From: a candidate division LCP-89 bacterium B3_LCP
Lineage (GTDB): Bacteria; Electryoneota; B3-LCP
Direction of reading: 5' to 3'
Length of the DNA stretch: 64,000 nt
Assembly (NCBI GenBank): GCA_005223185.1
Contig: NJBN01000001.1
Span: 441,365 to 505,364, forward strand
Position numbers and translations under genes: made by a program. Below are positions 37,735 to 56,958 of the stretch, piece by piece (within the stretch, counting starts at the first letter, position 1; each line of letters begins with the position of its first letter). The notes under the pieces are model-generated. The model worked only from the letters and a program-made list of their open reading frames with translations. It was not told the DNA's origin and ran no database searches.

Positions 37735-37784
37735 CGCACTGTGTGCGTCATCCTGAACGTAGTGAAGGATCTCATTTCAATTGT

Positions 37785-37814: not shown

Positions 37815-37894
37815 TTTGCTCCCTACCGTCATCGCGAGGAATCCGTCAGCCGACGGATGACGAAGCGATCCCAAAGCTCTTCAGATAAATCTCA

Positions 37895-38002
37895 TTTTCA
37901 CTGCTGTCGGGTCTCCGTACCCGACAGATCCCGTAGTCGGGGTCGCCCCTGACCCCGATACCATGCCGTAGGGCGGGGGTGTCCGTAAGGACTCCAATGG
38001 AG
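37895..38002. repeat. 108-bp direct repeat, copy 1 (composite of palindromic modules)
   Basis: ttttcactgctgtcgggtctccgtacccgacagatcccgtagtcggggtcg.ccctgaccccgataccatgccgtagggcgggggtgtccgtaaggactccaatggag; near-identical to 38349-38456. Confidence 0.8.
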
Positions 38003-38348
38003 TAGGCGGGGTGGCATGCTTCTGGATCGCCTAAGGCGAATCGAAGCATGTTTAAATCGTCCAGATATTGACCCCACAGCAGATCTGTGGGGCACCTAAC
38101 AGACGAATTCAAGTTTGTCATTCCGCACTTGATGCGGAATCCAGAATACCCGGAAATATCCGAACGGCTCCTATGGAGAATTCCTGAGCTAACCAATTTC
38201 TGTCCCGTGAAGCGGGACGTAAAGGTTTAAGCATCCCGCTTGAGCGGGATAGCATAAAATTAGCCCGGAAATTCATTTCCGGGTGGTGTAAGGTAATTAA
38301 TCAAAATGTCATTCTGAGCAAGCCGAAGGCGCAGCGAAGAATCTCCTG

Positions 38349-38456
38349 TTTTCACTGCTGTCGGGTCTCCGTACCCGACAGATCCCGTAGTCGGGGTCGT
38401 CCCTGACCCCGATACCATGCCGTAGGGCGGGGGTGTCCGTAAGGACTCCAATGGAG
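38349..38456. repeat. 108-bp direct repeat, copy 2
   Basis: Near-identical to 37895-38002. Confidence 0.8.
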
Positions 38457-38750
38457 CTTCCCCCGCCCTTTATTTATCGTTCCACTGGTACAAATTTGTC
38501 CGCCAATTTGTATTGTCCGCTAATTCTGTCATCGGTATTAAGATTACGGTAGATCGCCTGGATGACTAAAATGTCGTAGTCAGGGGTGGATGGGATAGTT
38601 TTCATGTGCATTATATAGTTGGATTATGAGGGGAGATTGTTGTATTTGAACAAACAATTGAGGTGAGTACTTATATATAATATACAACAATTCATCAGAA
38701 AATGCAAGGAGTTTTGGCAGAAATATGGAGTGGGTGGTGGTTCTTTAAAG

Positions 38751-38915
38751 GTTTCAAATCCCCCTTGGTCCCCCTTTGGAAAAGGGGGAAACTGCGTAAT
38801 TCCCTGCATACCCACTAACACCCCCCTTTCCCAAAGGGGGGAGTCCCAACTTGTTGGGACGGGGGGATTTCGGGACGGGGGGATTTCGGGACGGGGGGAT
38901 TTGGGCGGGGGGATT
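38751..38915. repeat. G/C-tract-rich ~165-bp direct repeat flanking the 3' side of the DUF559 gene
   Basis: ggtttcaaatcccccttggtccccc…ccctgcatacccactaa…cccccctttcccaaaggggggag…, then 3 tandem units of gggacggggggatttc. About 85-90% identical to 39275-39425. Confidence 0.8.
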
Positions 38916-39261
38916 ACAGATGATTCCAAATCACCTGCAGCACCCCCTCAATATTATTCATAACCTCCAGGTTGCTGAATCGCAACACTTGAAATCCTAA
39001 TTCATTCAGATATGAATCTCGTTTACGGTCTTTGATCTTACCCTGAGGGGTAAAATGTTGTTCACCATCTAATTCAATAATTATTTTCGCTTTAGGACAA
39101 TAAAAATCAACAATGTAATTTCCAATTACTCTTTGACGATAAAATTGGGTACGTTTTAGTTGTTTGCGTCGTATTCTGTTCCAGAGCCGTTTCTCTGCTT
39201 CAGTGGCATTATTTCTTAACTCTCTGGCAAGAAGTTTCAATTTGGGATTATAATAGATCAT
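38914..39261 (-). CDS. DUF559-family endonuclease-domain protein (Vsr-like PD-(D/E)xK fold)
   Basis: 115 aa; strong match to the remembered DUF559 pattern (YIVDFYCPKAKIIIELDGEQH…FQVLRFSNLEVMNNIEGVLQVI). Confidence 0.8.
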   Translation of the reverse strand: MIYYNPKLKLLARELRNNATEAEKRLWNRIRRKQLKRTQFYRQRVIGNYIVDFYCPKAKIIIELDGEQHFTPQGKIKDRKRDSYLNELGFQVLRFSNLEVMNNIEGVLQVIWNHL

Positions 39262-39274
39262 GCTTCATTGTTGA

Positions 39275-39425
39275 GGTTTCAAATCCCCCTTGATCCCCCT
39301 TTTCCAAAGGGGGAAACTGCATCTTTCCCTGCATACCCACTAATTCCCCCCTTTCCCAAAGGGGGGAGCCCCGACTTGTCGGGGCGGGGGGATTGGACGG
39401 GGGGATTTTAGACAGGGGGATTAAA
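39275..39425. repeat. G/C-tract-rich ~150-bp direct repeat flanking the 5' side of the DUF559 gene
   Basis: ggtttcaaatcccccttgatccccc…ccctgcatacccactaa…cccccctttcccaaaggggggag…gggcggggggatt…; same orientation as 38751-38915. Confidence 0.8.
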
Positions 39426-39509
39426 ACAGCAACCTAACCCACCCCAGAGGGGTGGGGCACCGGTGCGAGGGCACTCCTTCAGAGCTTCCACCTTCGGCGA
39501 AGGCTTTCG

Positions 39510-40412
39510 TCATTGAGTTGATGTTGGTACATCGGTTCTTTCGAGATCGTCCACATCTGCTTCAATTGTTCTTAACCGGTCATCACGCTGAATTCTCCAC
39601 ATAGCGATGACTAATTCTGAAATCAATATCGTCATGAACATCAATACATAAGCTACCAGACTCCAGTTATCAGATCCGCTCTTACTGGATATACATGCAA
39701 AAACAAATGCAGTAGATGAGAAAAAAAGGATTATTACATGACGCAGCTTATGGGACCGCTTGAGAAAGTAATATTCTAGCTCATCTATGGCACTATTATA
39801 CAGCAGAAGGCGTCGATCGTTTTGGTGTAATAGTAATTCATCATATAGCTGCTGTCTACTCTTCTCTATGGCTGCTAGAATTTCCTTATTAAGATATTGG
39901 TTTGTTAGCAGGCTGACAACGCCATAAATGGAAAAGAATATAGAGTAGAAAAACACATCCCTTGAAGCGAAGAATAGGACACTCAGGAGGACACCCAGCG
40001 AAAGTATCATTGCGGTTTCTCGCAAATCGGATGGCGGCTTGTATCTCCTAGGATCAAGCCACCGCCATAAGATAATTAATTCATGCCTTGTTGCCCACAC
40101 CCATAACCAAACAAGGACTCCTGTTAAGGCAAATAGTGCTACATAACATATAACTAGAATATCCGGCCAGGATTCCTTGATACGGTCGATCTCAGATAGC
40201 AACATTCCTGCTCCGAGCAGAGATGTGATAATACCTATGCCCCAACGCCGCGCAACGATCAGCCCTTCACTCTTTTCCTTAAGATTTGGTTTGTAGTTCA
40301 CGATGGTTCTCAGTTTATATTGATTTATATTCTTTCCTGTCAGGTTTTGATCGCCGAAGGCGGGTGTGACCTGATGGCTTTTATCATGCTGTAACGTCTG
40401 GTCGCGGTTCAA
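39510..40412 (-). CDS. Polytopic membrane protein of unknown function (third gene of the three-gene operon)
   Basis: 300 aa with about 6 hydrophobic helices (e.g. ILVICYVALFALTGVLVWLWVWA, LVAYVLMFMTILISELVIAMW); no recognisable motif. Confidence 0.5.
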   Translation of the reverse strand: MNRDQTLQHDKSHQVTPAFGDQNLTGKNINQYKLRTIVNYKPNLKEKSEGLIVARRWGIGIITSLLGAGMLLSEIDRIKESWPDILVICYVALFALTGVLVWLWVWATRHELIILWRWLDPRRYKPPSDLRETAMILSLGVLLSVLFFASRDVFFYSIFFSIYGVVSLLTNQYLNKEILAAIEKSRQQLYDELLLHQNDRRLLLYNSAIDELEYYFLKRSHKLRHVIILFFSSTAFVFACISSKSGSDNWSLVAYVLMFMTILISELVIAMWRIQRDDRLRTIEADVDDLERTDVPTSTQ

Positions 40413-40462
40413 GCAATACAGAGCCTTGAACTTACGAATAAAAAAATGTAAATATCAGGATT

Positions 40463-41050
40463 TTACTCTTCTGCATTCTTTTTATTGGTACACCGCCCAG
40501 CGTAACATTCCCATCCCCTTTCATTCATCGCTCTTTGGTCACTAATTCTCCTCTCAATAAATTCATTTAAACGACTATGGACATACCAGCTATCTAAATA
40601 GATCTGTGCAAAACAATCTGGATCCTCGGATGGATCACGCCCTTTGTATTTGATACTGCCGGTTTTTTTATGAGCAAATTCATTTCTGAGATTGTTTATG
40701 ACTGGAATATATTCATCTAATTCGGTTGCAACAAATGATTTAAAGCAAGGACGTAGAAGTTTATGCACTTGACTAAATGACATTCGTTTGACAATTCTAT
40801 CTAGTTCCTTTAGGCAACTTTCATGAAGTTCGTCATACCCTTCCATCCATAAAATTAGATCGGAAAGGTGCTCATATAGAATTTCTTTCATCATTGATTC
40901 AATTGATGCGTGAATGTCAAGTACAATAGAACGAACAATGTGATTCATATCTGTTCTATCAGAAGTCCAGGATTTCACTAATGCAAGTACTTCTTCTTTC
41001 GTTGAACAGCCTAATATGTTGATATATTTTCTATGATCGGTCTTAGTCAT
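40463..41050 (-). CDS. Hypothetical protein with a HEPN-like Rx4H motif (second gene of the three-gene operon)
   Basis: 195 aa, helical-looking; motif INNLRNEFAHKK fits the HEPN Rx4-6H signature. Motif-level inference only. Confidence 0.45.
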   Translation of the reverse strand: MTKTDHRKYINILGCSTKEEVLALVKSWTSDRTDMNHIVRSIVLDIHASIESMMKEILYEHLSDLILWMEGYDELHESCLKELDRIVKRMSFSQVHKLLRPCFKSFVATELDEYIPVINNLRNEFAHKKTGSIKYKGRDPSEDPDCFAQIYLDSWYVHSRLNEFIERRISDQRAMNERGWECYAGRCTNKKNAEE

Positions 41051-41149
41051 AGTTTATTAGACTCCCTCCGATACAACATCCATTTCTTCGTCGAGTTTGT
41101 ATGACATAGTTTTAGGTGCTTAACGAACGCTGGTATAAAACGGGTACTT

Positions 41150-41893
41150 TTAAGGACTTGTGGTGCCCGTAGAGGTAACCGTTGTTGTTATACCGTTGGG
41201 ATCGGTCGGATAAGGATAAGTTTGTGGATCATTACCAAGTATTTTTTCAATTTCTTCTTTGAAATGATTTCGTATATTCGCAGTGCTAGAGGGTGGATCA
41301 CAATCCAATATGCTGAACATACTGTGTGACCGTGCGTGTAATGGTTTTCCTGAATGTAGTGTATCTAGTCTTTTGAGAGCTGCATCAATAGAATTCACAG
41401 CTATTAGTTTTGAGTACCAATTGCCTAGTTTAACAGCGTTGTCACTGTTTTCTCTAAAGTAGATTTCTATTGCAGCAGCAATCTCGGATACAAAGTCAGG
41501 CAGATTTAAAAAAACACGATGTCCAGCACCATTTACTTGTTTTCTCAAATGCATAGGTGATTGATCGTGGTGTAAGATAAAACGAAGCTTTACTTGTTGT
41601 GTCGCATTCGACTGTCCATACGTATGAATCAATGAATTTCGTATTCGCCATAGATCATCATCCAGACTACCATACTTTGCATTTAGTTTCTTCATATATT
41701 CAGAAATAAATTTCTTAAAATCATTTCCTGTGTTTCTGTCTTTTGTAGGGTCCAGCCCTAATCCCATATAGTCTATACAGCAAAATGAAAGAATATATGC
41801 GCCCATTAGAGATCTTCCTTCAATTGCCCTTATGATATCAGCCACTGCCGTATCAAAGAAATTAAATTTTAATATGTTATAATCATATGCCAT
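41150..41893 (-). CDS. Hypothetical protein with a HEPN-like Rx4H motif (first gene of the three-gene operon)
   Basis: 247 aa; agggag RBS; motif DLWRIRNSLIHTYG fits Rx4H; C-terminal low-complexity Thr/Pro tail. Motif-level inference only. Confidence 0.45.
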   Translation of the reverse strand: MAYDYNILKFNFFDTAVADIIRAIEGRSLMGAYILSFCCIDYMGLGLDPTKDRNTGNDFKKFISEYMKKLNAKYGSLDDDLWRIRNSLIHTYGQSNATQQVKLRFILHHDQSPMHLRKQVNGAGHRVFLNLPDFVSEIAAAIEIYFRENSDNAVKLGNWYSKLIAVNSIDAALKRLDTLHSGKPLHARSHSMFSILDCDPPSSTANIRNHFKEEIEKILGNDPQTYPYPTDPNGITTTVTSTGTTSP

Positions 41894-41960
41894 TGGAATT
41901 ACTCCCTGATTTAATTTTGGTTTATGCCTGCTTTACGTGATTCTCAATCACTATCCCTAA

Positions 41961-41989
41961 AATATACCCCAATTCATAACACAAGTCAA
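41961..41989 (-). promoter_or_regulatory. Sigma-70-like promoter TTGACT-N17-TATATT for the three-gene operon
   Basis: Minus-strand reading cttgact-tgtgttatgaattgggg-tatatt; about 60 nt upstream of ATG 41893. Confidence 0.5.
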
Positions 41990-42019
41990 GAAGAATATTT
42001 ACCAGATGTGTTTCATTCA

Positions 42020-42048
42020 ATAAAAAAGGCACCCCAGCGGGGCGCCTT
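42020..42048 (-). terminator. Rho-independent terminator (minus strand)
   Basis: Minus-strand hairpin ggcgccccgctggggtgcc followed by ttttttatt; about 450 nt downstream of the P5C dehydrogenase stop and just upstream of the operon promoter. Confidence 0.6.
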
Positions 42049-42156
42049 CTGTCCTCTGTTCTCAATTCCCCCACTTTACCCTTGCATTCCAGGCAATTTT
42101 GTTGTATATTATATATATACTCCAATTATCAAATTTCCATCCTCAATCCTCTCACC

Positions 42157-42191
42157 AACTGCTAACTGCTAACTGCTAACTGCTAACTGCC
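42157..42191. repeat. Tandem heptamer (aactgct/ctaactg) x5
   Basis: Five perfect contiguous 7-bp units in the non-coding region downstream of the P5C dehydrogenase gene. Confidence 0.9.
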
Positions 42192-42487
42192 AAAAACCAT
42201 CTTCTTGACAACGACACATCTGTCACAGGCGACAAATATGACCGACAACCTAAGACGCATGAAAAACAATCACATAACCCCCAAAAACGACAGATATGGC
42301 GCAATTTCAGATTTTGTGCGTGGGAGTCAAAATTTCTGTCGCTTTTGTGCTGAAAGGCAAAGTCACCTTCGTCAAATCTGTCGCCAATCTGAAATGTAAA
42401 ATAATCGGCTTCGCGCCCATAAAATAATCCCTCTGACTCCAGGAGCCGGGGGATTATTCTGTCTTCTGTCTTCTTTATTCTTTTTCC

Positions 42488-44035
42488 CTAAAACTGCTCA
42501 CACACCGCCTTACCCTGAGTGAAGAGCGCTAAATAATCTCTGCCGCCAGCTTTGGAATCGGTGCCGGACATGTTGAAACCACCGAAGGGTTGAACGCCCA
42601 CCAGAGCGCCCGTACACTTGCGGTTCAGGTAGAGGTTGCCTGCATGCAGTTCCCTGCGCCCGACTTCCAAATTGCCGCGGTTACCGCTGTATAAAGCGCC
42701 GGTCAATCCGAATTCAGTGCCGTTTGCGATGGCTATGATATGCTCGAAATCCTTCGCTTTGATGAAAGCCAGAACCGGCCCGAAGATCTCCTCCTGAGCG
42801 ATGCGCGCTTCCTCATCTACGTCCTTGATGATGGTTGGCTGAATGAAATACCCGCCGTCGGGACCCTTGCCTCCACCCAGAACCAGTTCGCCTTCCTTCT
42901 TACCGATTTCGATGTATTCCAAAATCTTGTTGTAGGCAGCTTCATCCACCACGCCGCCCATGAAGTTGTCCTGATCCTTCACTTCACCGATGGTGATGGG
43001 CTTAGCCTTTTCAACCACTTTCGCCACCACTTCATCATAAACCGATTCGTGAACGATGGCACGGGAACAGGCGGAACACTTCTGCCCCTGAAATCCAAAA
43101 GCAGCAGCGACGATCCCCTGTGCCGCCGCATCCAGATCGGCAGATTCATCGACCGCGATGAAGTCCTTACCGCCCATCTCCAGAACGGTGCGCTTGATCC
43201 AGATCTGACCTTCGGATTTCTTGGCAGCACGTTCATGGATGCGCAAACCTACTTCCATAGAGCCGGTAAAGGCGATGAAACGGGTGCGGGGATGATCGAC
43301 TATGGTATCACCGATTTTACTGCCGGGTCCGGGGAGGAAATTCAGCACGCCGTCAGGCAGACCGGCTTCCTTCATGATCAGATAAAACTGGTATCCGATC
43401 GCCGGAGCGGTTGACGCCGGTTTCAGGATTACGGTGTTGCCTGCAACTATGGCAGCCGAAGTCATCCCGCAGAGGATAGCTAAGGGGAAGTTCCAGGGAG
43501 GGATTACGGCGCCCACACCTAAAGGTATGTAATACAGTTCGTTCTCTTCGCCGGGGTAGGGGATAACCGGCTGAGGCTGACCGTAGCGCATCATCTCTCT
43601 GCCGTAGAATTCCAGAAAGTCGATAGCTTCGGCTACGTCGGCGTCCGCTTCTAACCAGTTTTTGCCGACTTCATATATCATCCAGGCGGCTAATTCGCGG
43701 CGGCGGCGCTTCATTATGGCTGCGGCTTTGATCAAATAGCGGGCGCGATCATCGGGAGCAACGCGGCTCCAGAGCTTGAAAGTCTCATCCGCAGTAGCTA
43801 TGGCTTTTTCAGCTTGTTCCTTGCTTCCTTTGGAACAGTTGGCTACGACTTCATCGTACTTGGAGCAGTTCAAAGATACGATCTTATCATCGGTGACGAT
43901 CTCCTTTCCGCCGATGACTAAAGGTATGGTAATTCCTAACTGCTTCTGGACTTTATCCAGCGCAGCTATCATTTCCTGCCGGTTTTCGCTTTTGGAAAAA
44001 TCGGTAAAGGGGGTTGGTACAAATTCGGGGAGCAT
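42488..44035 (-). CDS. L-glutamate gamma-semialdehyde (1-pyrroline-5-carboxylate) dehydrogenase
   Basis: 515 aa aldehyde dehydrogenase with catalytic-Cys region GFQGQKCSACSRAIV and Glu motif LEMGGKD; size and sequence match RocA/PruA-type P5CDH. Confidence 0.85.
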   Translation of the reverse strand: MLPEFVPTPFTDFSKSENRQEMIAALDKVQKQLGITIPLVIGGKEIVTDDKIVSLNCSKYDEVVANCSKGSKEQAEKAIATADETFKLWSRVAPDDRARYLIKAAAIMKRRRRELAAWMIYEVGKNWLEADADVAEAIDFLEFYGREMMRYGQPQPVIPYPGEENELYYIPLGVGAVIPPWNFPLAILCGMTSAAIVAGNTVILKPASTAPAIGYQFYLIMKEAGLPDGVLNFLPGPGSKIGDTIVDHPRTRFIAFTGSMEVGLRIHERAAKKSEGQIWIKRTVLEMGGKDFIAVDESADLDAAAQGIVAAAFGFQGQKCSACSRAIVHESVYDEVVAKVVEKAKPITIGEVKDQDNFMGGVVDEAAYNKILEYIEIGKKEGELVLGGGKGPDGGYFIQPTIIKDVDEEARIAQEEIFGPVLAFIKAKDFEHIIAIANGTEFGLTGALYSGNRGNLEVGRRELHAGNLYLNRKCTGALVGVQPFGGFNMSGTDSKAGGRDYLALFTQGKAVCEQF

Positions 44036-44073
44036 TGTGCCTCCGTTAGGTTATTTTAGTTATATTTATAAGT

Positions 44074-44125
44074 CTGAAAATATAAGCAAAAACCCTTGAA
44101 AATTCAAGGGATTTTAGGGAAAAAG
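44074..44125. repeat. ~50-bp direct repeat, copy 1, with central inverted repeat cccttgaa-aa-ttcaaggg
   Basis: tctgaaaatataagcaaaaacccttgaaaattcaagggattttagggaaaaag; about 85% identical to 45516-45568. The pair brackets the DUF3800-like gene. Confidence 0.75.
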
Positions 44126-44343
44126 AATGTAAAATGTAGAATGGTGAATTTTAAATTAGGAATTTGTAATGGGAGGGAGAATCAGGGACATCTCCAAAGG
44201 TGCAGGCAAGCCGCTGAGGGAGCTTACGCCCTGTCCCGAGCACACACGTTTTTGTTGTAAGCAATATGATTTTGGGATAGATTAAATATTTATTTCATCA
44301 ATAAATCTTCTCAAATAGTCATATTTCTGATTACTAAGAATAT

Positions 44344-45447
44344 CTAGTTGGCGCTTACTCGCAATAGAATGTCTTCGCGAGCCTTCTTCAACCTACTAAG
44401 CATCGGGCCAATCTGACCACTCATTTGCCCCACAAAATCATATAAATCTTGCTCGGAGTCCGGTATTTTATAACCTTTTGGACTACTTGCTATAATCACT
44501 CCTTTATCTCTAAGCTTTGCAATTACCTTTGAGCGCAAGTAATGAGTAGTTACTTTATTCGGGCTAACCTGATTTAGAATTCTCTTTAGCTGTTCAGTAA
44601 ATATGTACCTTTTTGAATTTACATATCTAAAGTGGTAAAGTAAATATTTCAACGCTTCTAGCTGATCTGTTATAACTTCATCTTTAGTGTCCATATTTTC
44701 TTCAATAAAATTTGATGCTTTATAAAGTGCTAGCTCACAGATAAGATTATCAAAATCGTTTCCTTTAGTAATCCATGACTTATTTGTAGAAGGGTGACTT
44801 ATTGGTGGCCATGTGTCAATTAGCAAAGTCCGATTTAATAAAATATTCATAAAATCTTTTGAAACGGTTGTGGATTTTTTGGGATCAAAATGTCTTGCGA
44901 GTGTTCCAGATATAAAGTCAGCAAGTTGAACTATTGGTTGTTCATGACTCGCAACAAATCCGAATTCTGCTCGGATGAATAGATCAGGTACATGATTCTC
45001 GTTTACATATTTTTGAAAGCCTTCCATAAAAGATCTTCCCCCGTATTCATCGGATATTATAAACATTTCGGGGAAGGTACGATATAACTTTCTGTAAAGC
45101 AATCCATGCGTAAACTTAATAAATGGCTCTCTGTAAATTAATCCACTGCTTTCCCATACCTCACGTTTATCAATTATAATAGAATAAAATTTAAAATCTA
45201 ATCCAGCAATATCCTTTAATATCTTTCTCCTTCTTTCATCATTTGAACCAACATTCTTGGACTTCATCTCCCCAGTGCGAAAATGGATTTTTCGTATTTC
45301 ATCTGCATCCCGTTCCAATTCTACTAAATGATCGTGTTCTACTATAATAGCAGTAATAATAAAGCATGTTGACACTCCTCCTTTTGAAACATCCAAGTTA
45401 GGGTCTCCATACGCGTCAACGAATGCATACTGAGGTTCTAAGTTCAT
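44344..45447 (-). CDS. DUF3800-like protein with C-terminal extension
   Basis: 367 aa; N-terminal YAFVDAYGDP and later SHEQPIVQLADFISGTLARHF resemble remembered DUF3800 signatures (DESG-like start, Q.AD..AG…R). Family call from memory only. Confidence 0.5.
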   Translation of the reverse strand: MNLEPQYAFVDAYGDPNLDVSKGGVSTCFIITAIIVEHDHLVELERDADEIRKIHFRTGEMKSKNVGSNDERRRKILKDIAGLDFKFYSIIIDKREVWESSGLIYREPFIKFTHGLLYRKLYRTFPEMFIISDEYGGRSFMEGFQKYVNENHVPDLFIRAEFGFVASHEQPIVQLADFISGTLARHFDPKKSTTVSKDFMNILLNRTLLIDTWPPISHPSTNKSWITKGNDFDNLICELALYKASNFIEENMDTKDEVITDQLEALKYLLYHFRYVNSKRYIFTEQLKRILNQVSPNKVTTHYLRSKVIAKLRDKGVIIASSPKGYKIPDSEQDLYDFVGQMSGQIGPMLSRLKKAREDILLRVSAN

Positions 45448-45515
45448 TTCTTCTTTAAATCCTATTCTTTGTATGGCACAACAATTCGGATCATATTTTA
45501 TATATCTCTAGACGT

Positions 45516-45568
45516 TTTAAAATATAAGCAAAAACCCCTGCAATTTCAAGGGGTTTTGGGGGTAAAGC
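45516..45568. repeat. ~50-bp direct repeat, copy 2
   Basis: ttttaaaatataagcaaaaacccctgcaatttcaaggggttttgggggtaaag; same orientation as 44074-44125. Confidence 0.75.
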
Positions 45569-45645
45569 GTGTTTATAAAGATTATTATACAATCGATCTT
45601 TAGCATTTCATGTTCCCAAAAAGGGAAAATAGTTCTTGACTTCTA

Positions 45646-45674
45646 TTTGGGAACTTCTTATCTTATATATAGTA
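45646..45674 (+). promoter_or_regulatory. Sigma-70-like promoter TTGACT-N17-TATCTT upstream of higB
   Basis: ttgact 45646-45651, 17-nt spacer, tatctt 45669-45674, about 40 nt upstream of ATG 45714. Confidence 0.4.
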
Positions 45675-45713
45675 TATAAGGTAGAATATTTATGAATCCA
45701 GCTATAGCGCACA

Positions 45714-45998
45714 ATGGAAATAATTAATCTACAAGCGTTAGAAAGATATATCAAGAAGCACAGGACTGCGGAAGAAGTAATAAAGAACTGGGTGGTGTTT
45801 GTCGAAAATGCAGATTGGGATCGTCCTTACGATGTCAAACAGGATTACGATGCAAGATTTATTAGTTCTAAGCGTGTGATCTTCAAATTAGGTAACTCTT
45901 GGCGTATTGATACACGAATTGCTTATAACAGTAGAAAGATTTACGTTATCCGTATTGGAACTCACGAAGAGTACAATAAATGGAAATATAAAGATTAA
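45714..45998 (+). CDS. higB: Type II toxin HigB (E. coli YgjN-like RelE-fold mRNA interferase)
   Basis: 94 aa; C-terminal KRVIFKLGNSWRIDTRIAYNSRKIYVIRIGTHEEYNK aligns with E. coli HigB (HYVFNVGGNELRVVAMVFFESQKCYIREVMTHKEYD). Confidence 0.8.
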   Translation: MEIINLQALERYIKKHRTAEEVIKNWVVFVENADWDRPYDVKQDYDARFISSKRVIFKLGNSWRIDTRIAYNSRKIYVIRIGTHEEYNKWKYKD

Positions 45999-46012
45999 CT
46001 AGAGAGTCAGAT

Positions 46013-47542
46013 ATGAGCCTAAAAGTTATAAAGACTCAAAATGATTACGATGAGGCTCTTCGGGAAATTGAAGAGTTCATCATACTCGATCCCGTTCCTG
46101 GGACAGAAGAAGCCAATCGCCTGGAAGTCCTGTCGGTGCTGATAAAGGCGTATGAGGATGAGCATTTCCATTTTGACCTCCCCGATCCGATTTCAGCAAT
46201 CAAATTTGTTATGGAGCAACGTGGCCTTAAGCGGTCTGATTTGGTGCCCTTTATTGGTTCCCCTTCAAAAGTGTCAGAAATACTATCTGGGAAAAGGCAA
46301 CTCAGTCTCTCAATGATGAGACGACTCAATGAAGGATTGAATATACCCGCAGAAGTTTTGATGAAAGAACGTCAAAAGGAAATACCTGAAGAAACTGATA
46401 TTCAGTGGAGTAAGTTTCCGTTAACCGAGCTGAGTAAAAGAAACTGGTTCCCCGAGTTCTCTGGGACGCTACCTAAACTTAAGGAATACGCTGAGGATTT
46501 AATGCGACCGAAAATAGAGTTACTTTTAAAAAATTGTACGATGATTCCTCTTCAAAGGACTTCAAGTATAAATCTGCGAAGTGACAAAGTGATAGATCTT
46601 TATTCGTTAGTTGCATGGCAAACCAGAGTTGTTGAAAAAGCTAAAGGAATCAGCCTTGAAGTGCCTTATTCTGGGAAAATTGCCAAAGCACTTCTCAAGC
46701 AAATTGCAAGTCTGACAGTTCTGGATGAAGGACCTCTAGCAGCACGAGAGATATTATATAAAAACGGTATTCATCTTGTTGTTGAACCGCATCTAAAGAG
46801 TACATACTTAGATGGTGCAGTAATGCTTCTCAATGATGGCACACCAATAATCGCTTTGACACTTAGATACAACCGACTTGATAATTTCTGGTTTAGCCTT
46901 ATTCATGAATTAGTACACTTGCATAAACATCTAGATGAGGAAAACTCATACTTTTTTGATGATTTTGAAGGAACAGAGAATCTACTAGAAATTGAGGTTG
47001 AAGCAGACAAACATGCGGGTGAGATTTTAATACCAAAGAGTAGTTGGAGTATAGAAAGATCCATTTATTATTCTACAAGAGGAACTTTTGATGAGATTAA
47101 ACAATTGGCCAGAAAACTAAATGTACATCCCGCAGTCTTAGTAGGCCGAATTCATCATGATTCTGGGGATTTTAGGAGATATCATAGGCTTCTGGGGAAA
47201 GGTATCCCCCAAGAGCTATTTTCAGATTCGTCTGTTAACTATTTGATTAGACAGCCAAATATAATAAATAACAGAAAGGGTACAAAAATGGGAAGAATGC
47301 GTAAAACAATTCGTTATAAGCTTTACGATGGTAGAAAAGACGTTTACCATGGTATCACAAAAAACCTTGAGCGAAGAGAACAAGAACACGAACGGGATGG
47401 CAAAAAGTTTTCACGGGTAGAGAGGGTGGGACCTGCCGTAACAGTTGAAACTGCAAAACAATGGGAAGAACAATCTCTGAAGAGTTACCGGAAGAATCAC
47501 GGGGGTAAGAATCCAAAGTATAATGAGGATAAAACTGGATAA
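46013..47542 (+). CDS. Fusion protein: HigA-like HTH antitoxin + ImmA/IrrE (DUF955, COG2856) HEXXH metallopeptidase + C-terminal GIY-YIG-like module
   Basis: Residues 1-120 match HigA (IGSPSKVSEILSGKRQLSLSMMRRLNEGLNIPAEVL vs E. coli IGSKSMVSRVLSGKRKLTLEHAKKLATRFGISPALF). Central region carries LIHELVHLHKH and EADKHAGEILIP, typical of ImmA/IrrE Zn-peptidases. C-terminal ~90 aa carries IRYKLYDGRKDVYHGITKNLERREQEH, resembling the GIY…YIG…R…E/H core. One uninterrupted 509-codon ORF starting 15 nt after higB. Confidence 0.7.
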   Translation: MSLKVIKTQNDYDEALREIEEFIILDPVPGTEEANRLEVLSVLIKAYEDEHFHFDLPDPISAIKFVMEQRGLKRSDLVPFIGSPSKVSEILSGKRQLSLSMMRRLNEGLNIPAEVLMKERQKEIPEETDIQWSKFPLTELSKRNWFPEFSGTLPKLKEYAEDLMRPKIELLLKNCTMIPLQRTSSINLRSDKVIDLYSLVAWQTRVVEKAKGISLEVPYSGKIAKALLKQIASLTVLDEGPLAAREILYKNGIHLVVEPHLKSTYLDGAVMLLNDGTPIIALTLRYNRLDNFWFSLIHELVHLHKHLDEENSYFFDDFEGTENLLEIEVEADKHAGEILIPKSSWSIERSIYYSTRGTFDEIKQLARKLNVHPAVLVGRIHHDSGDFRRYHRLLGKGIPQELFSDSSVNYLIRQPNIINNRKGTKMGRMRKTIRYKLYDGRKDVYHGITKNLERREQEHERDGKKFSRVERVGPAVTVETAKQWEEQSLKSYRKNHGGKNPKYNEDKTG

Positions 47543-47601
47543 CAGGTGTTAAATGCAGATTGTCCCCCATATTTTCAGCTGTAGATTAGACTGAGTTCCC
47601 C

Positions 47602-48780: not shown

Positions 48781-49374
48781 TCATTTGCCCTTAATTCCTT
48801 TACTGCCGGGTGCTATAAGAGCAACGTTATCGCGGCAGAGGGGGCAATCTGCTGGATCATACGTGGCGATGTTCATCTCCAGCAAAGCTATCGCTTCCGT
48901 TCCTAATTCCAGAGGCTTGCCGGAACGGTTGACCAGTACGGCTGCACCGATGGGGTCGGCTCCCGCTTCCCGCACCGCTTCCACCACCTGCCGCGCGGAA
49001 CCACCAGTAGTAACGATATCTTCCACCACCAGGACTCTTTCACCCGGTTGAAAGGCGAAACCCCTGCGGAATTCCAGTTTGTCGCCAACTCTTTCAGCGA
49101 AGGCACAGGGGACATTCAGTGATCTGGCGACTTCGTACGCTATTACTACTCCACCAAGAGCGGGTCCCGCTACCCGCTCTACATTGCGGTCCCGGAATGC
49201 GTCAGCCATGGCGCTGCAGAGTTCTCCGGCGATTTCCGGGCGTTCCAGCAAACGGAATTTCTCCACGTACTGCCCGCTGTGTTTCCCCGAACGGAGTTCG
49301 AAATGTCCTTCCAAGTAGGCGCCGCATTTCTTCAGTAGTTCTTGCACTCGTTGGGGTGAAATAGGTTCGATCAT
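48781..49374 (-). CDS. pyrE: Orotate phosphoribosyltransferase
   Basis: 197 aa; PRPP-binding motif VLVVEDIVTTGGS. Confidence 0.85.
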   Translation of the reverse strand: MIEPISPQRVQELLKKCGAYLEGHFELRSGKHSGQYVEKFRLLERPEIAGELCSAMADAFRDRNVERVAGPALGGVVIAYEVARSLNVPCAFAERVGDKLEFRRGFAFQPGERVLVVEDIVTTGGSARQVVEAVREAGADPIGAAVLVNRSGKPLELGTEAIALLEMNIATYDPADCPLCRDNVALIAPGSKGIKGK

Positions 49375-50957: not shown

Positions 50958-53151
50958 ATGATGAGGGTAATAGGACGGTTAACACTACTTTGGGCGGCTT
51001 TGATCGTTGCGGTTTCCGTGAATGCGGGCACGCTTCATCCTGATCTTAGAGCCAAGATGAATTCAAGTTCTGATGGAGAATTCATCAGAATTTTAATAAC
51101 ACTGGAAGAACAAGCCGACTTTAACACGCTGATGGCTGCTACCACAGGTCTGTCAAAACAGGAAGCCCGGACTTTGGTAGTCGGACACTTGAAAGAATTG
51201 GCTAATTCAACACAACGGGAAATAAGGGAGTATTTGGAAGCACAGAAAAACCTGGGTCGAGTCAAGGAACTCAGATCTGTGTGGATAGCTAATATAATGT
51301 ACGGTCTGGCAACTCCTGAGGTCATTCGGACTCTGGATGAATTCCCCGGAATAGCCAATGTTTCCTGGGATCCACAACGCTACCTACTCTTTCATGAACG
51401 ACCAAACGAAGTTCATCCTCCTAACAATCCCCCTACGGATGAGATTGCCTGGGGCATTGCGGATATCAATGCCGATGACGTATGGGGTATGGGCTACACC
51501 GGAGCTGGCATAATTGTAGGTATGATCGATACAGGTGTAAATTACAATCATGTGGATCTGGCTGACCATATGTGGAACGGAGGTCCCCAATACCCCAATC
51601 ACGGTTGGGATTTTCACAATAACGATAACGACCCCATGGATGACGGAAGCGCCTTCATGGGTGGTCATGGCACTCATACTGCCGGATCAGTGGCGTCCGA
51701 TGGAACGGGCAGGTTCGCGGTGCGGCGTTGCTCCTGATGCCAATATCATGGCTATCAAGGTGCTTTCCGGAAATGGGTACGGCAGCGAAGGACCCGTAAT
51801 CGCCGGAATCGGTTTTGCGGTTGATCAGGGAGCCGAAATTTTCAGTATGTCCCTGGGATTTGTCAGTACTTCTCAGCATTACCAGTTTAGAACTGCTTGT
51901 AATAATGCTTTGGCAGCCGGTGTAATTGGTGCTATTGCGGCGGGTAATGAAGGTAACCAGCAGTGGTCGTATCCCATCCCCGGAAATGTACGGACGCCTG
52001 GGAACGTTCCGCCGCCGTGGCTTCATCCCGATCAAGTGCTTACTGGTGGTTTAAGCTGTGTGGTGACTTGTGGGGCAACCAATATGTACCAATCTTTAGC
52101 GGGATTTTCCAGCCGCGGGCCGGTTACCTGGGAAGGAATTAACCCCTGGTATGATTATCCATATGCAGGCGGATCTCAGATGGGATTGATAGATCCGGAC
52201 GTCAGTGCACCCGGTGAAGACGTAAAATCGTGCTGGTTCATGGATAACTGGGGATATGCGGACGGCTGGGATGGTACTTCCATGGCGACTCCGCATGTGG
52301 CGGGCACATTCGCGTTGATGCTGCATAAAGATCCCAGTTTGACTCCGGCTGACCTTGACATGTACCTGGAAACAACGGCAATTGACTGGGGTTCGCCCGG
52401 AAAAGATAACGATCATGGAGCGGGCAAGATCGATGCTTTGGTTGCGGTTTCTGCAGTTCCCGGCGGTACTCTGCCTGATGTTATCATAACGACTACACCT
52501 ACAGGATCTACGTCATTACCATCTTCCGGTGGTACATTATATCATGACGTTAATCTGGTGAATAACGAAACATACGGTGTGCCCATGGCTGCCTGGCTGG
52601 ATTTGGAATACCCCAATGGCAGTTGGTCTGGCGCACTGATTTTGCGTAATCTCACCCTCATGGTGGGAGTGAACGTAACCCGTTCACTGACAACTACCAT
52701 TGCAGGTAGTGAGCCAGATGGCAATTATAACCTCTGGGTTCACATGGGGTCGTCTTACGGGGGGACTATATACTCAGAAGACAGCTTCCCCTTTACCAAG
52801 GGTCTGCCTGACAGTGATCCGGGTGAATGGGTATCCGAAACGGCTGTTTACGGCTGGGAAGAGGAACTTGTTTCCATGCAGACGCCGGAATCGTACAGTT
52901 TGGGAAGCGCTTATCCCAATCCCTTCAACCCGTCCACGACTATACCTTTCAGTCTGGCTGATAACGGTTATGTTTCGCTGAAAATTTTCGATCTACAGGG
53001 ACGTGAAGTTGCTACCATAGCTGAAGGTGAGATGTCTGCGGGACAGTATAAAGTTACTTTCGATGGGACGAACTTCGGTTCGGGAATTTACCTGTACCAG
53101 TTGAAGACAGCGGATTTCTCTCAGACCATGAAGATGACGCTGATAAAGTAG
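50958..53151 (+). pseudogene. Subtilisin-like S8 serine peptidase with T9SS C-terminal domain, interrupted by a +1 frameshift near 51723
   Basis: RBS aggagg; signal peptide. Frame 0 carries the Asp and His catalytic regions (GMIDTGV, GGHGTHTAGSVA) and stops at 51737. Frame +1 continues with GVAPDANIMAIKVL and the Ser region (GTSMATPHVAG), ending in a Por_Secre_tail. Removing 1 nt around gtgCggc gives the natural …GRFAVGVAPDAN…. May be a true pseudogene or a sequence error. Confidence 0.65.
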
Positions 53152-53349: not shown

Positions 53350-55248
53350 TTATTTCAGCAGCACCATCTTCCCTGATGCCGTATATTCCTCAGCCGTCAG
53401 GCGATAGATGTAGATGCCGGAAGACAGGTTCGATCCATCGAAGGTGATTTGGTGGGTGCCGGGAGGATGCCATGCGCCCTGTGTAGGGGCGGGTTTACCC
53501 TTATAAAGGGTGCCTTCGGCAAAACCCGCCCCTACATTGCGCCCGTTGATGTCGAACACATCAAGTTTCACTAAACTCGCAACTGGCAGGGAGAAGCTGA
53601 TGGTTGTGGTGGGGTTGAAGGGGTTGGGGTAGGCGCCGTTCAGGGTAAACTCATTTATGGTAAAATCTGTAAATTTATTGAGATACTCATCAGGTAGTTT
53701 ATCCCACCCCGTCAATATCCAGTTCGATACTGTGTGAGAATCTGATGAACCTGGCAGTTTCTCAAAGGGAAAATGATCCTCAGCTAAGAGCTCGATGGTA
53801 TTATGGTCATAGATGTAAGCATTGTAAACATAGTCTCCAGCAAGCGCATAGCCGGGGACGTTCTGGGCAATACTATCCCGCTGGATGACAGACCCTGGGA
53901 CTAAATTAATCCCCTGGCGATTGAAAACCTGATAGATAGCACCGCTCGGCAAAGTAATATCGTTCCGAATATCAACAATGTAGGTAATACTATCATTATT
54001 GGCAATTTCAATATCGTAGGTAAACGAACCGCCCGCTGCAGGAATCTGAATCGGAGGATTATGGGGATTAAGTACAACTGATATGTACTGTTGTTCAGGT
54101 TCAAGGCATATCATCAGGAAGTCTGCTATTCCAGCGCCAAGCGTATTTGTCCATCCAGCAATAAAATAACCTTCGTTATTCGTTTGATCAACCGCATATC
54201 CGACACTACTGTATCCACATGCAAACATTTTATGCCATTCTTCACTGCCGGAGGCATCTGTCTTTAATAAATAGACTCCTGGAGGCGAATAAGAAAGCGA
54301 ATACCCCGTCACTATGAATCCGTTATCGGACGTAAGATCAACGCTATGACCTTCTTCAGCTGAAGTTCCCCCGTACGTTTGTGTCCATGTTGGGTTCCCA
54401 TCAGCATCGGTCCTCAGCAAACACACATCGTACATGCCTGCCCCGGATGAATTGGTCGCGCCGGTGATAATATAACCTCCATCAGGCGTTTGCATAACGT
54501 CATGTCCAACGTCTGACCCACTGCCGCCATAAGTCCTCGACCATTGTTCAATACCAAAAGCATCGGTTTTTATCAAATACATATCATAAAACGAGGAAGA
54601 CATTGAAAAGGAATTGGTGCAGCCGGCGATAACGAAACCATCGTCTGAGGTTTGTCTAATACTGAATCCCTCATCACAATTGGAACCACCGAAAGTCCTC
54701 TCCCACTGTGTAATACCGTTGCTGTCAGTTCTAATGATAAAAATACTCTCTTCGCCGGGACCATATGACCAGGTTTCAGCAACAAGAATATATCCGTTAT
54801 CACTGGTTTGTATTACGTCATTACCAGCGTCTCTGCCTGTACCACCGTATGCTTCAGACCATTCTTCGTTTCCGTTTTCATCAGTTTTTATCAAATAAAT
54901 ATCGCAATCTCCCGGTCCGAATGAGAAGGTGTCACCAATGATGATATATCCACCATCTGTGGTCTGTATTATACCAGTTCCGCTTTCATATGAAAACCCA
55001 CCGAAAGTTTTTGTCCAGACGGTGTCACCATTGGCATCAACTTTCACAAGATATACATCAGCAGAACCATTACCGAAAGACGCTGTTTGTCCCACAGTAA
55101 TAAAACCACCGTCCGTTGTCTGCTGCCCATCGAAGCAGAAGTCACTTTCAATCCCTCCACAGGTTTGAATCCATTGGGTATTTGGCTGAGCATTAATTGA
55201 GAAAGCGAGAATAAAAATCGCTAACAAAGAAGTATGAAATCTATGCAT
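53350..55248 (-). CDS. Secreted protein with tandem ~48-aa beta-propeller-like repeats and T9SS C-terminal domain
   Basis: Start moved to ATG 55248 (aggaggtg RBS; signal peptide MHRFHTSLLAIFILAFSINAQ). Repeats of TFGGxxxExGxxIIQTxDGGYIIxGxTxSFGxGxxDIYLIKTD, paralogous to the 31890 gene. C-terminal Por_Secre_tail containing the in-frame palindrome. Confidence 0.6.
   Translation of the reverse strand: MHRFHTSLLAIFILAFSINAQPNTQWIQTCGGIESDFCFDGQQTTDGGFITVGQTASFGNGSADVYLVKVDANGDTVWTKTFGGFSYESGTGIIQTTDGGYIIIGDTFSFGPGDCDIYLIKTDENGNEEWSEAYGGTGRDAGNDVIQTSDNGYILVAETWSYGPGEESIFIIRTDSNGITQWERTFGGSNCDEGFSIRQTSDDGFVIAGCTNSFSMSSSFYDMYLIKTDAFGIEQWSRTYGGSGSDVGHDVMQTPDGGYIITGATNSSGAGMYDVCLLRTDADGNPTWTQTYGGTSAEEGHSVDLTSDNGFIVTGYSLSYSPPGVYLLKTDASGSEEWHKMFACGYSSVGYAVDQTNNEGYFIAGWTNTLGAGIADFLMICLEPEQQYISVVLNPHNPPIQIPAAGGSFTYDIEIANNDSITYIVDIRNDITLPSGAIYQVFNRQGINLVPGSVIQRDSIAQNVPGYALAGDYVYNAYIYDHNTIELLAEDHFPFEKLPGSSDSHTVSNWILTGWDKLPDEYLNKFTDFTINEFTLNGAYPNPFNPTTTISFSLPVASLVKLDVFDINGRNVGAGFAEGTLYKGKPAPTQGAWHPPGTHQITFDGSNLSSGIYIYRLTAEEYTASGKMVLLK
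53483..53535. repeat. Perfect 53-bp palindromic element embedded in frame in the T9SS C-terminal domain coding sequence
   Basis: gtaggggcgggttt (53483-53496) and aaacccgcccctac (53522-53535) are exact reverse complements, enclosing two small hairpins (ccctt-ata-aaggg and gcc-ttc-ggc). Encodes the extra loop VGAGFAEGTLYKGKPAPTQGAWH. Confidence 0.8.
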
Positions 55249-55741
55249 GATAGCACCTCCTAAACTTATTAATTGCATAACGAATGTCACTAAGTTGTTG
55301 ACTCGTGTGCTGTAGGATATATTATCTCAAATTCTGTGCCGTATAATTTAATCGACACAACTTTCCTGGTGTAATTATTTCCGCCTATAGTCAGGGATAA
55401 GAGAATTATCCCACTGAGTAGGTTTCCTGTTGTGTCAGGCTTTGCCTTCGAAGTCTTGACCTGCTCCAGCGGGATGAAGCCTGCCCTCAACCGAATTACC
55501 TCTAATATACACAATATTTTCGGTTTTGTCAAGTGGTTTGTTTTTTTGGGGGGATTTTCTCGAAAAAAGCGTCAGGTCTCCGTTGCACTAAGGACCTAAC
55601 GCAACATGTAAAGCGGGGGCAAGCCCCCGCGCTACCTTTTGTCGGGGTCAGGGACGGCCCATGCCGAAGGACAGGCAAGCCCGAATACGGGATAAGGAAA
55701 GGGCGGACACAGAGGTCTGCTCGGGGGAAGCCTTGTGAATT

Positions 55742-55772
55742 AAAAAAAGGGCAGACACATAGGTCCGCCCCT
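55742..55772 (-). terminator. Rho-independent terminator (minus strand) downstream of acyl-CoA dehydrogenase
   Basis: Minus-strand gggcggac-ctatgt-gtctgccc followed by ttttttt; same hairpin family as 33075 and 37785. Confidence 0.6.
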
Positions 55773-55797
55773 ACAGTATTTCAGAGTCAGTGTGGGA

Positions 55798-56958
55798 TTA
55801 TCTGGCTCTCTGCTGTGCTTCTTTGATCAGGCTCTTGCCTATAACCACTCGCTGGATCTGGTTGGTGCCTTCGTAGATCTGGGTGATCTTGGCGTCGCGC
55901 ATGTATTTCTCTATGGGATAGTCCTTCATGTAACCATAACCACCGAACAACTGCACTGCGTCAGTGGTTACTTTCATGGCTACATCTGAACACTTCAGCT
56001 TGGACATGGCGGAGAGCTTGGCAACGTTCTTTTCACCAGCATCAATAGCGCGGGAAGCTTTATATAGAAGCGCTCGAGCGGATTCTATTTCCGTAGCCAT
56101 GTCAGCCAACATCCACTGAATACCCTGGAAATCGGCGATCGCCTGCCCGAACTGTTCCCGCTGACGGACGTAATCAATAGCCAGATCAAAAGCACCCTGA
56201 GCGATCCCCAACGCTTGTGCGGCTACTCCGGGGCGCGAACGATCCAGAGTCTGCATAGCAGTGATAAAGCCCCGCCCGGTTTTGCCCAGCAGGTTTTCCT
56301 TGGGAACCTTGCAATCCTGAAAGATCAGCTCGCGGGTTGCGGAGGCGCGGATTCCTAATTTGTCCTCTTCCTTGCCGTAAGAAAACCCTTCCATGCCATC
56401 TTCAACGATGAAAGCGGAAGTGCCCATAACGCCCTTACTCTGATCCGTAGAAGCAATCACCGTATAGACTTTAGCCACTCCGGCGTTGGTGATGAAATGC
56501 TTCAAACCGTTCAGAATATAGTAATCACCCTCTTCACGAGCGGTGGTTTGCATATTAGATGCATCTGATCCGGCAGCAGGTTCAGTCAATCCAAATCCAG
56601 CCAGGATTTCACCACTGGCTAATTTGGGCAGAAAGCGTCTCTTCTGTTCCTCTGTACCTGATATGATGATCGGAAAAGTACCCAGGGCAGTAGCAGCTAC
56701 AGCAAGAGCGATACCGCCGCATGCTCGGGACAGTTCTTCGATGATCAGCACCAAATCGAGGACTCCGCCAACACTGCCACCGTATTCTTCATCGATATAG
56801 CAGCCGTAGAAACCAGCCTGGGCAAAAACTTTGACCAAGTCCCAGGGGAATTCACCGGTACGGTCACATTCGGCAGCTCTAGGGCGCACTTTTTCTTCAG
56901 CGATGCGTCGCGCTAACCGACGCAGCTCCTGTTGATCTTCAGTAAGGAGGTCGGACAT
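55798..56958 (-). CDS. Acyl-CoA dehydrogenase (short/medium-chain type)
   Basis: 386 aa; typical ACAD fold sequence (…GFGLTEPAAGSDASNMQTTA…YEGTNQIQRVVIGK…). Confidence 0.85.
   Translation of the reverse strand: MSDLLTEDQQELRRLARRIAEEKVRPRAAECDRTGEFPWDLVKVFAQAGFYGCYIDEEYGGSVGGVLDLVLIIEELSRACGGIALAVAATALGTFPIIISGTEEQKRRFLPKLASGEILAGFGLTEPAAGSDASNMQTTAREEGDYYILNGLKHFITNAGVAKVYTVIASTDQSKGVMGTSAFIVEDGMEGFSYGKEEDKLGIRASATRELIFQDCKVPKENLLGKTGRGFITAMQTLDRSRPGVAAQALGIAQGAFDLAIDYVRQREQFGQAIADFQGIQWMLADMATEIESARALLYKASRAIDAGEKNVAKLSAMSKLKCSDVAMKVTTDAVQLFGGYGYMKDYPIEKYMRDAKITQIYEGTNQIQRVVIGKSLIKEAQQRAR

Follow-up and report, generated by a model that had tools for sequence, protein, structure and literature searches.

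In-frame GTAG-tagged palindromic repeats at one codon of type IX secretion sorting domains in an LCP-89 bacterium and in other uncultured bacteria

The gene at 53350-55248 (minus strand) of the stretch of DNA analysed here (64,000 nucleotides from the candidate division LCP-89 bacterium B3_LCP, hereafter the window) encodes a protein that ends in a type A sorting domain of the type IX secretion system (T9SS), and within that domain, in frame, lies a palindromic element at 53482-53536. The element is a GTAG-tagged, double-foot palindromic repeat of the repetitive extragenic palindromic (REP) or REPIN (inverted REP doublet) type, the type that accompanies subclass 2.4 of the tyrosine transposases associated with REPs (RAYTs). 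The codon at which it sits, directly after the valine of the motif D-I-x-G-R-x-V, is recurrently occupied by palindromes in this genome and in other uncultured bacteria. The explanation we favour, with a probability of roughly two in three, is that a selfish or neutral REP/REPIN is tolerated at one permissive site of the sorting domain and owes its spread to duplication of the domain, to conversion and to re-invasion.

GTAG REPs and double-foot REPs are already known, as are REPs that lie in frame inside genes (PMC3733652, PMC6006769); what is new is the sorting domain as a REP host and the hot spot within it. Within the limited coverage of our literature search we found no prior description of a REP, palindrome or hairpin in T9SS C-terminal domains, and no report of GTAG REPs in LCP-89 or related candidate phyla.

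The element and its host domain

The element and the gene that carries it are made up as follows.

53350-55248, minus strand: host gene, a beta-propeller-repeat protein with a T9SS type A sorting domain, 100% identical to CEE37_01970 (P0001)
53362-53631, minus strand: Por_Secre_tail domain, residues 554-643 of the 646-aa open reading frame (ORF), its predicted beta-strand 3 interrupted by the element
53482-53536, minus strand: double-foot GTAG REP-like element, in frame; sense strand GTAGGGGCGGGTTT-[TGCC GAA GGCA][CCCTT TAT AAGGG]T-AAACCCGCCCCTAC, encoding VGAGFAEGTLYKGKPAPT
53483-53496: left arm as read on the plus strand, GTAG foot followed by GGGCGGGTTT
53522-53535: right arm as read on the plus strand, AAACCCGCCC followed by the CTAC foot
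53497-53520: loop with the two mini-hairpins ACCCTTATAAAGGGT and GCCTTCGGC, the translation of which is the stretch below 50 in predicted local distance difference test (pLDDT) score in the structural model

The ORF around the element runs from 53350 to 55290 on the minus strand and, with its start at 55248, is P0001 (CEE37_01970) of bacterium B3_LCP. Its N-terminus MHRFHTSLLAIFILAFSINAQ, judged by eye, is a signal-peptide-like start, and its C-terminus scores 40.3 bits against PF18962 (cut-off 27) and 36.7 bits against TIGR04183 (cut-off 23), the latter match breaking off at the insert. The sorting domain runs to the stop codon with the frame intact past the element. Like other type A domains it occupies the C-terminus of the protein, with the PNPFNP motif and an end of the form G..Y and K..L.K, and its model is a six-strand beta-sandwich, but the third strand of the insert-bearing domains is broken, in the models, by 5-17 palindrome-encoded residues. 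CEE37_01970 is a predicted T9SS cargo protein, for which a PorV-family gene at 11300-12400 and the purifying selection described below provide indirect support. This PorV-family gene, on the plus strand and encoding a T9SS shuttle protein, adjoins a TonB-dependent receptor-like gene (8587-11322) and lies among sorting-domain cargo genes.

The segment from the Gly of "GR" to the Gly of "AG.H" is 29 aa long in CEE37_01970 and 15 aa in 107 of 128 aligned sorting domains, and the insert therefore adds 14 aa, as the first-pass annotation of this DNA had estimated when it described an in-frame element of about 14 extra residues in a T9SS C-terminal domain. Full-length relatives of CEE37_01970 lack the element and have the canonical 15-aa segment, again in line with that annotation.

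The 15-nt arms TGTAGGGGCGGGTTT (53482-53496) and AAACCCGCCCCTACA (53522-53536) are 100% complementary and 25 nt apart. Between them the sequence is not palindromic and forms two mini-hairpins, ACCCTT-ATA-AAGGGT and GCC-TTC-GGC. The exact reverse-complement arms enclosing two small hairpins that had first been noticed are thus present, and perfect over 15 nt, but the "perfect 53-bp palindromic element" of the same annotation is not, as palindromy is limited to the arms. The predicted RNA shape is a long stem bearing the two mini-hairpins; the sense-strand fold has an energy of -41.9 kcal/mol (z = -5.9) and none of 200 dinucleotide shuffles is as stable. When up to 3 mismatches are allowed, the 14-mer arm is found 17 times in the window where 4.1 occurrences are expected, a number that none of 100 shuffles reaches.

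A double-foot GTAG repeat

Double-foot long REPs are defined by a 5' GT[AG]G foot, three G-C pairs at the base of the stem and a 3' C[TC]AC foot (Quentin et al. 2018, PMC6006769). The element reads GTAG-GGG...CCC-CTAC, with GTAG at 53483-53486 and, on the other strand, at 53532-53535, and so has both feet and all three base pairs, together with the long GC-rich stem of the class. It also shares with double-foot REPs the variable loops that are able to hold inner complementary stretches, and the occurrence of copies directly 3' of ORFs. The extragenic position that is usual for REPs is seen in a related copy at 1569-1619, whereas the element at 53482-53536 lies inside an ORF. Its differences from described double-foot REPs are a new host phylum (LCP-89), a new kind of host family, a secretion signal domain, and the occupation of one fixed codon across many paralogues and lineages.

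Within the window the GTAG head is found on 8 of 23 GC-rich short hairpins, against an expectation of about 2%, and there are three copies of this particular arm family and at least 8 other GTAG hairpins. Several of the latter stand directly 3' of genes and are followed by a run of T (33071, 37783 and, on the minus strand, 55774).

Double-foot REPs are cognate to RAYT (TnpAREP) subclass 2.4, which is group 4 of Bertels, and occur in frame inside tnpAREP genes; the subclass is known from Cyanobacteria, Bacteroidetes and various other phyla (PMC6006769). GTAG REP families have been listed for Proteobacteria, Cyanobacteria, Chloroflexi and the Planctomycetes-Verrucomicrobia-Chlamydiae (PVC) group, with neither LCP-89 nor its relatives among them, and in-frame intragenic REPs, including some in DNA-repair genes, have been described (Di Nocera et al. 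2013, PMC3733652). When a single genome of each species was scanned for GTAGGGGCRGGTTT...AAACCYGCCCCTAC, matches came from at least 120 genome blocks of up to 8 kb, which among the matches listed are mostly cyanobacterial, the others listed being from Acidobacteriota, Chloroflexota, Fibrobacterales, Raymondbacteria, Gallionella, Lamprocystis and a deltaproteobacterial genome. Five of these at least 120 blocks contain an ORF resembling RAYT 2.4 (NH[LFV]H with an N-terminal R-L-x-G-Y-D-Y, and YIxNNP in three of them), where about 0.2 would be expected by chance for a single-copy gene. Four of the five ORFs were scanned against NCBIfam (that of L049 was outside the scan); three match NF047646, REP-associated tyrosine transposase, all below the cut-off, and that of L030 has no match. 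In four of the five the arms of the element lie in frame, after the HUH motif, so that cyanobacteria, Acidobacteriota and a deltaproteobacterial genome have the same 14-nt arms within RAYT-2.4-like ORFs.

The four ORFs with in-frame GTAGGGGCRGGTTT arms are L005 256-855, L115 236-, L087 3263- and L030 4620-, and the hosts are Rhizonema, Scytonema, a deltaproteobacterial genome and one of Acidobacteriota; in L030 five VGAGFPRPDSNPGETD units stand in tandem. Among the blocks L001-L120, the cyanobacterial ones have the same 14-nt arms flanking 62-68-nt units with non-palindromic cores, and those of other phyla have a simple 29-nt palindrome, GTAGGGGCGGGTTT[C/G]AAACCCGCCCCTAC, often in partial tandem copies.

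With REPINs (Bertels and Rainey 2011, PMC3116915) the element has in common inverted GTAG feet around a hairpin, what would be a population of copies within the genome, and variants that keep their pairing. As described, REPINs differ in being extragenic, about 100 nt long and provided with a spacer, whereas the palindromes here are 28-55 nt, coding and inherited with a protein domain.

Other classes of repeat were also considered. The first-pass annotation had likened the element to the Rickettsia palindromic elements (RPEs), which Ogata and colleagues are said to have described in 2000, and as an analogy for an in-frame palindromic repeat this is fair, as in both cases palindromic repeats lie in frame in protein genes and are translated and the host protein is not destroyed. 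RPE-1 is longer, however, at about 100-150 bp, and is known only from Rickettsia, and RPEs are scattered over many unrelated genes whereas here a single domain position is used. Judged by tag and host the element is of another family: RPE-4 and RPE-6, which are intragenic in Rickettsia, have a CGTC tag (PMC3733652), and the element has a GTAG tag and is hosted by LCP-89. At 53-55 nt it is also not a miniature inverted-repeat transposable element (terminal inverted repeats with a target-site duplication, 70-300 bp), and its flanks CCCTG/T and A/TTGCG have no direct repeat. An intrinsic terminator was rejected, there being no T-run after the element on either strand and the terminator scan being empty there. 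Rfam gave zero matches at gathering scores in the window, the element itself having only chance matches to miRNA hairpins (E = 0.3-0.7), and the arm sequences, searched as strings in the literature, gave unrelated primer matches only.

Other copies in the window and the genome

The window has ten sorting domains, four of which have a palindromic insert right after the Val of D-I-x-G-R-x-V and six of which have none. In addition to the element described above, the related copies are as follows.

1569-1619, plus strand: intergenic copy of the same arm family, 10 nt past the stop codon of the cargo gene 24-1559
31587-31637, plus strand: a further copy at this codon of the domain (gene 29886-31754), encoding VGAGLSRRDAEGETRPY
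32885-32926, plus strand: degraded palindromic insert at the same codon, GTAGGGGTCG..CCCC-TTCG-GGGG..CGACCCGT, in sorting domain 32785-33050
36407-36448, plus strand: the same 42-nt insert in gene 33164-36571, 100% identical to 32885-32926

The copy at 31587-31637 has a left arm identical to that of 53482-53536 and a right arm, AAACCCGCCCTTAT, that pairs through G-U on the sense RNA; its mini-hairpins differ from those of the studied copy, yet include the same GCCGAAGGC in another position. The intergenic copy has arms GTAAGGGCAGGTTT and AAACCTGCCCCTAC, in which a G:C pair has been replaced by A:T in a compensatory change, and forms a long stem with inner hairpins. All three copies with GGGC[GA]GGTTT arms fold as a long stem with two mini-hairpins (z = -5.9, -2.8 and -3.9). 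The folds at 32885 and 36407 (z = +0.4 and -1.1) are no better than those of shuffles.

The proposal that the termini match those of 1569-1619 therefore holds, the two belonging to one arm family with a compensated pair, and so does the expectation that the element would recur in the genome, as seen in the copies at 31587-31637 and 1569-1619 and the degraded inserts at 32885 and 36407. Beyond what had been noted, the same domain position is occupied in at least four genes of the window and in dozens of metagenomic sorting domains. Two more proteins of the genome have extra residues at the site, P0103 (GRAV-LVGTRYASS-LINGW) and P0128 (GRNV-GSAQDRP-LRDGW), and all six inserts known in this genome preserve the frame, adding 14, 8, 7, 7, 7 and 5 aa.

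The sorting domain 32785-33050 (plus strand) and the beta-propeller-repeat ORF 31836-32705 (plus strand), of which it would be the expected end, are in different frames, and NCBI annotates the domain as a separate protein of 132 aa (P0124, CEE37_01885). The break between them is likely to be a frameshift, a pseudogene or an assembly error.

Recurrence at one codon across uncultured bacteria

Metagenomes scanned for the junction (VFDIxGxxV, then GTAGGGG) yielded 71 matches. Sorting domains account for 42 of these, and in 32 of them a perfect stem of at least 7 pairs starts at the Val codon, the other ten being mostly imperfect or offset palindromes. The 29 matches outside sorting domains, mostly in one nitrilase-family gene, include none with such a stem. 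The stems vary by host (GTAGGGGCACGGCATGCCGTGCCCCTAC, ...GCGAGGTTACCTCGC..., ...GCGCTTCGCGAAGCGC..., or head-to-head pairs of two different hairpins) and keep their pairing. When 13 distinct palindromes from the site were aligned (A4), with one loop base added to three 27-nt palindromes, the window arms joined by one base and stem columns only counted, 96% of stem cells paired and five pairs were changed on both sides, which none of 500 shuffles reaches.

A survey of the 64 distinct sorting domains found with our own profile in the fetched loci, which includes neighbours outside the scan pattern such as L148 with GTCGGGGTC...GACCCCGAC, places every GC-rich hairpin with a stem of at least 9 bp at residues 31-47; hairpins elsewhere in these domains are few and have stems of 7-8 bp. 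In a protein-level sample, length variation of four residues or more is largely confined to this segment, the next segment having four small expansions of +2 to +5 aa. GTAG hairpins are found at the same Val in distant, Bacteroidota-like sorting domains (YPNPT...VFDIYGRNV), and the same hairpin families are present outside long ORFs of the same contigs.

A separate feature of many of these domains is a 7-8-bp inverted repeat, CGACGGCTCCGATCTGCCGTCG, in the conserved stretch that codes for FDGSDLPSG (residues 51-67; L148, L183, L187), which does not have a GTAG head.

Translation and predicted structure

In the region after the insert, a comparison of the four insert-bearing domains of the window gave a ratio of nonsynonymous to synonymous change (dN/dS) of 0.05-0.19 with a proportion of synonymous differences (pS) of 0.33-0.67. 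This purifying selection indicates that the region is read in this frame and that the inserts are therefore translated, as had been supposed for the studied copy.

AlphaFold models were built from a 128-row alignment for a domain without an insert and for that of CEE37_01970.

Canonical domain, gene 36874-37734: mean pLDDT 92; strands 11-18, 22-29, 35-44, 47-54, 61-69, 72-80
Insert-bearing domain, gene 53350-55248: mean pLDDT 81; strands 11-18, 22-29, 56-58, 61-68, 75-83, 86-94

In the insert-bearing model strand 3 is down to three residues, and residues 41-49, the translated mini-hairpins, are below pLDDT 50. The insertion point would be inside strand 3, between V and A of R-x-V-A-x-L-V-N-G-W, and not in a loop, where it had first been placed. 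A search of PDB folds with this model gave generic immunoglobulin-like matches with E values of 0.013 or worse, the T9SS C-terminal domain 8qb1 ranking 20th, and is informative only to the level of "beta-sandwich".

In the common 28-nt form of the palindrome, the Val and Leu of strand 3 are read from GTA in one foot and CTA in the other, and the frame that reads the 5' foot as xxG-TAG yields a stop codon.

Descent, conversion and turnover

With the insert masked, the insert-bearing domains are mutual nearest neighbours at 71-84% identity, in a sample that was picked by similarity to the query and is biased accordingly; they therefore form a subfamily, which the first-pass annotation had not noted, and are not scattered recent hits.

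Short tracts that resemble conversion have the palindrome at their centre. The inserts at 32885 and 36407 are part of a 60-nt block that is 100% identical, in flanks whose synonymous sites are near saturation (pS ~0.6). Selection on structure was rejected as the source of this identity and local gene conversion fits it better, because the folds of the two inserts are no better than shuffles. Two metagenomic contigs from two samples, L170 and L189, are 99.63% identical over 3,784 bp, and 4 of their 14 differences make up one symmetric swap in the arms (GA...TC vs AC...GT) at L170 2211-2238 and L189 6313-6340 (reverse strand), which leaves the palindrome perfect; a neighbouring paralogue holds the other variant. 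A further cluster of differences, at L170 3188-3218, was considered as a second REP and rejected as ordinary coding variation.

At the same site and with the same flank, L193 has a basic hairpin, GTAGGGGCAGGTTT-C-AAACCTGCCC, of which L192 has a decayed version. This suggests that the loop of the window copy acquired its two mini-hairpins later.

Other features of the window

Three single GTAG REPs followed by a T-run are located downstream of genes or domains.

33071-33096, plus strand: single GTAG REP then T-run (GTAGGGGCGGACCTCTGTGTCCGCCC TTTTTT), downstream of sorting domain 32785-33050
37783-37808, plus strand: single GTAG REP then T-run, downstream of gene 36874-37734
55749-55774, minus strand: single GTAG REP then T-run, downstream of gene 55798-56958, which is acyl-CoA dehydrogenase-like as judged by its sequence

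A perfect 9-bp GTAG-headed hairpin is found at 49157-49184 (minus strand) inside the phosphoribosyltransferase (pyrE-like) ORF 48781-49374. It has the same CGCAATGTAG context upstream as the sorting-domain copies, and encodes the conserved VERVAGPAL with zero extra residues. A subtilase (Peptidase_S8) is split over the overlapping plus-strand ORFs 50958-51737 and 51550-53151, which suggests a frameshift in a T9SS cargo gene.

The intergenic block 37780-39500 is rich in hairpins, including GTAG-TCGGGGTC REPs, and has direct repeats (37904-37958/38358-38412 and 38759-38860/39284-39385) around a DUF559 endonuclease-like ORF at 38914-39261 (minus strand). The region that follows, 39500-47600, looks like a mobile or defence island: its GC content is low, 0.35-0.38 in places, and it encodes a HEPN RiboL-PSP-like protein (25.5 bits, below the cut-off of 28.4), a DUF3800 protein, a protein with a helix-turn-helix and an M78 peptidase, and ORFs without a family match, with an aldehyde dehydrogenase gene of normal GC in its middle.

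Origin and maintenance of the inserts

Under the explanation that we favour, a REP would have colonised an ancestral sorting domain, and the insert would have survived as strand 3 obtains, in this frame, the Val and Leu that it requires from the GTA and CTA of the feet. The xxG-TAG frame, being a stop, would be lethal, and this register filter would account for the fixed register. The occupied domain would then have spread among cargo genes through duplication and gene conversion, the hairpin being repeatedly replaced or homogenised from the genomic pool of REPs, and the two mini-hairpins of the window copy would be secondary additions to a basic hairpin GTAGGGGCRGGTTT-N-AAACCYGCCC, the form seen at L193. 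Sites resembling GTAGCNNNNCTAC may be the target of insertion. The data can be explained with no benefit to the host.

Several points weigh against this account. Motif scans of the 64-kb window and Pfam scans of selected ORFs found no RAYT gene, so that mobilisation of the element by a cognate transposase in this organism is putative. Exact look-ups with three proteins of this genome, two of them from window genes and the third P0103, recovered no contig. No pair of otherwise identical alleles with an empty and a filled site was found, and for this reason the boundaries of insertion are putative, and either transposition or conversion may have placed the element. The pattern of the junction scan detects inserts at this site only, and the exclusivity of the site rests on smaller unbiased samples. 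The disruption of a beta-strand in the model makes the sorting function of the insert-bearing domains putative, and selection on structure is another possible source of perfect palindromes in diverged hosts.

This last point leads to the strongest of the alternatives, which we nevertheless consider unlikely, that the hairpin is a selected nucleic-acid element which is kept because it is useful and is not merely tolerated. As RNA it could be a structure in the mRNA that pauses ribosomes or protects the message, and as DNA it could be a recombination or landing site through which cargo genes exchange the sorting domain's 3' half. In its favour are the perfect stems, with compensatory changes, that many lineages have at a single site, the G-T pairs placed so as to read G-U on the sense strand, the long stem with two mini-hairpins that three copies in the genome form from different sequences, and the conversion tracts around the palindrome; furthermore GTAG REPs stand directly 3' of several cargo genes, and the 3' half of the sorting domain is therefore often bracketed by two REPs. 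However, the same hairpin families are found outside genes and belong to a class of known selfish or domesticated repeats, in-domain copies have decayed whilst the ORF was kept (32885 with z = +0.4, 36407 with z = -1.1, and the degraded L192), and most sorting domains, including six in the window, have no insert at all.

It would seem more unlikely still that the palindromes form in place, beginning with the GTA...CTA of the V-x-x-L codons in strand 3: template switching in replication would copy one arm onto the other, and quasi-palindrome correction would keep the two perfect. In many cases just five residues are gained net, and the feet fall on the codons for Val and Leu in the canonical strand, the pyrE-like gene has its GTAG-headed 9-bp hairpin within a conserved motif at no cost in residues, and near-identical alleles differ by a symmetric swap of two arms. 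That swap is, however, equally explained by conversion from the neighbouring paralogue with the other variant, and an origin in place does not account for stems that are shared with hairpins outside long ORFs, on the same contigs and across organisms, or for arms that match in-frame elements of RAYT genes in other phyla.

That the insert-bearing genes are pseudogenes or assembly artefacts, their in-frame reading being accidental, is very improbable: one sorting domain, 32785-33050, is indeed out of frame with the upstream ORF 31836-32705, and a beta-strand is lost in the model, but all six inserts of the genome keep the frame, dN/dS after the insert is 0.05-0.19, and the same structures are present in independent assemblies (ENA, Logan and JGI).

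Implications

The type A sorting-domain subfamily described here would tolerate 5-17 extra residues in beta-strand 3, which argues that this strand is not read by the secretion machinery. As domain profiles break at the insert, inventories of cargo proteins in uncultured bacteria of the FCB group (Fibrobacterota-Chlorobiota-Bacteroidota and relatives) may be undercounted; the Por_Secre_tail match of a related protein, P0118, has only the mark "faint" in its precomputed Pfam record.

The insertion of REPs and REPINs is still poorly understood, and a recurrently occupied codon would provide a defined natural target for cleavage and joining by RAYT 2.4, as well as a system in which the turnover of hairpins and conversion between paralogues can be followed. 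A bolder and rather doubtful possibility is that the REP palindromes of strand 3 are a maintained module, either a landing pad or gene-conversion hot spot, possibly dependent on a RAYT, or an mRNA hairpin that tunes translation of the cargo. Were the landing-pad version true, dozens of cargo genes in bacteria of the FCB group would have the 3' half of their sorting signals shuffled or homogenised through it, and with a maintained module of either kind REPs would for the first time be seen to have been domesticated within a secretion signal, and this across phyla.

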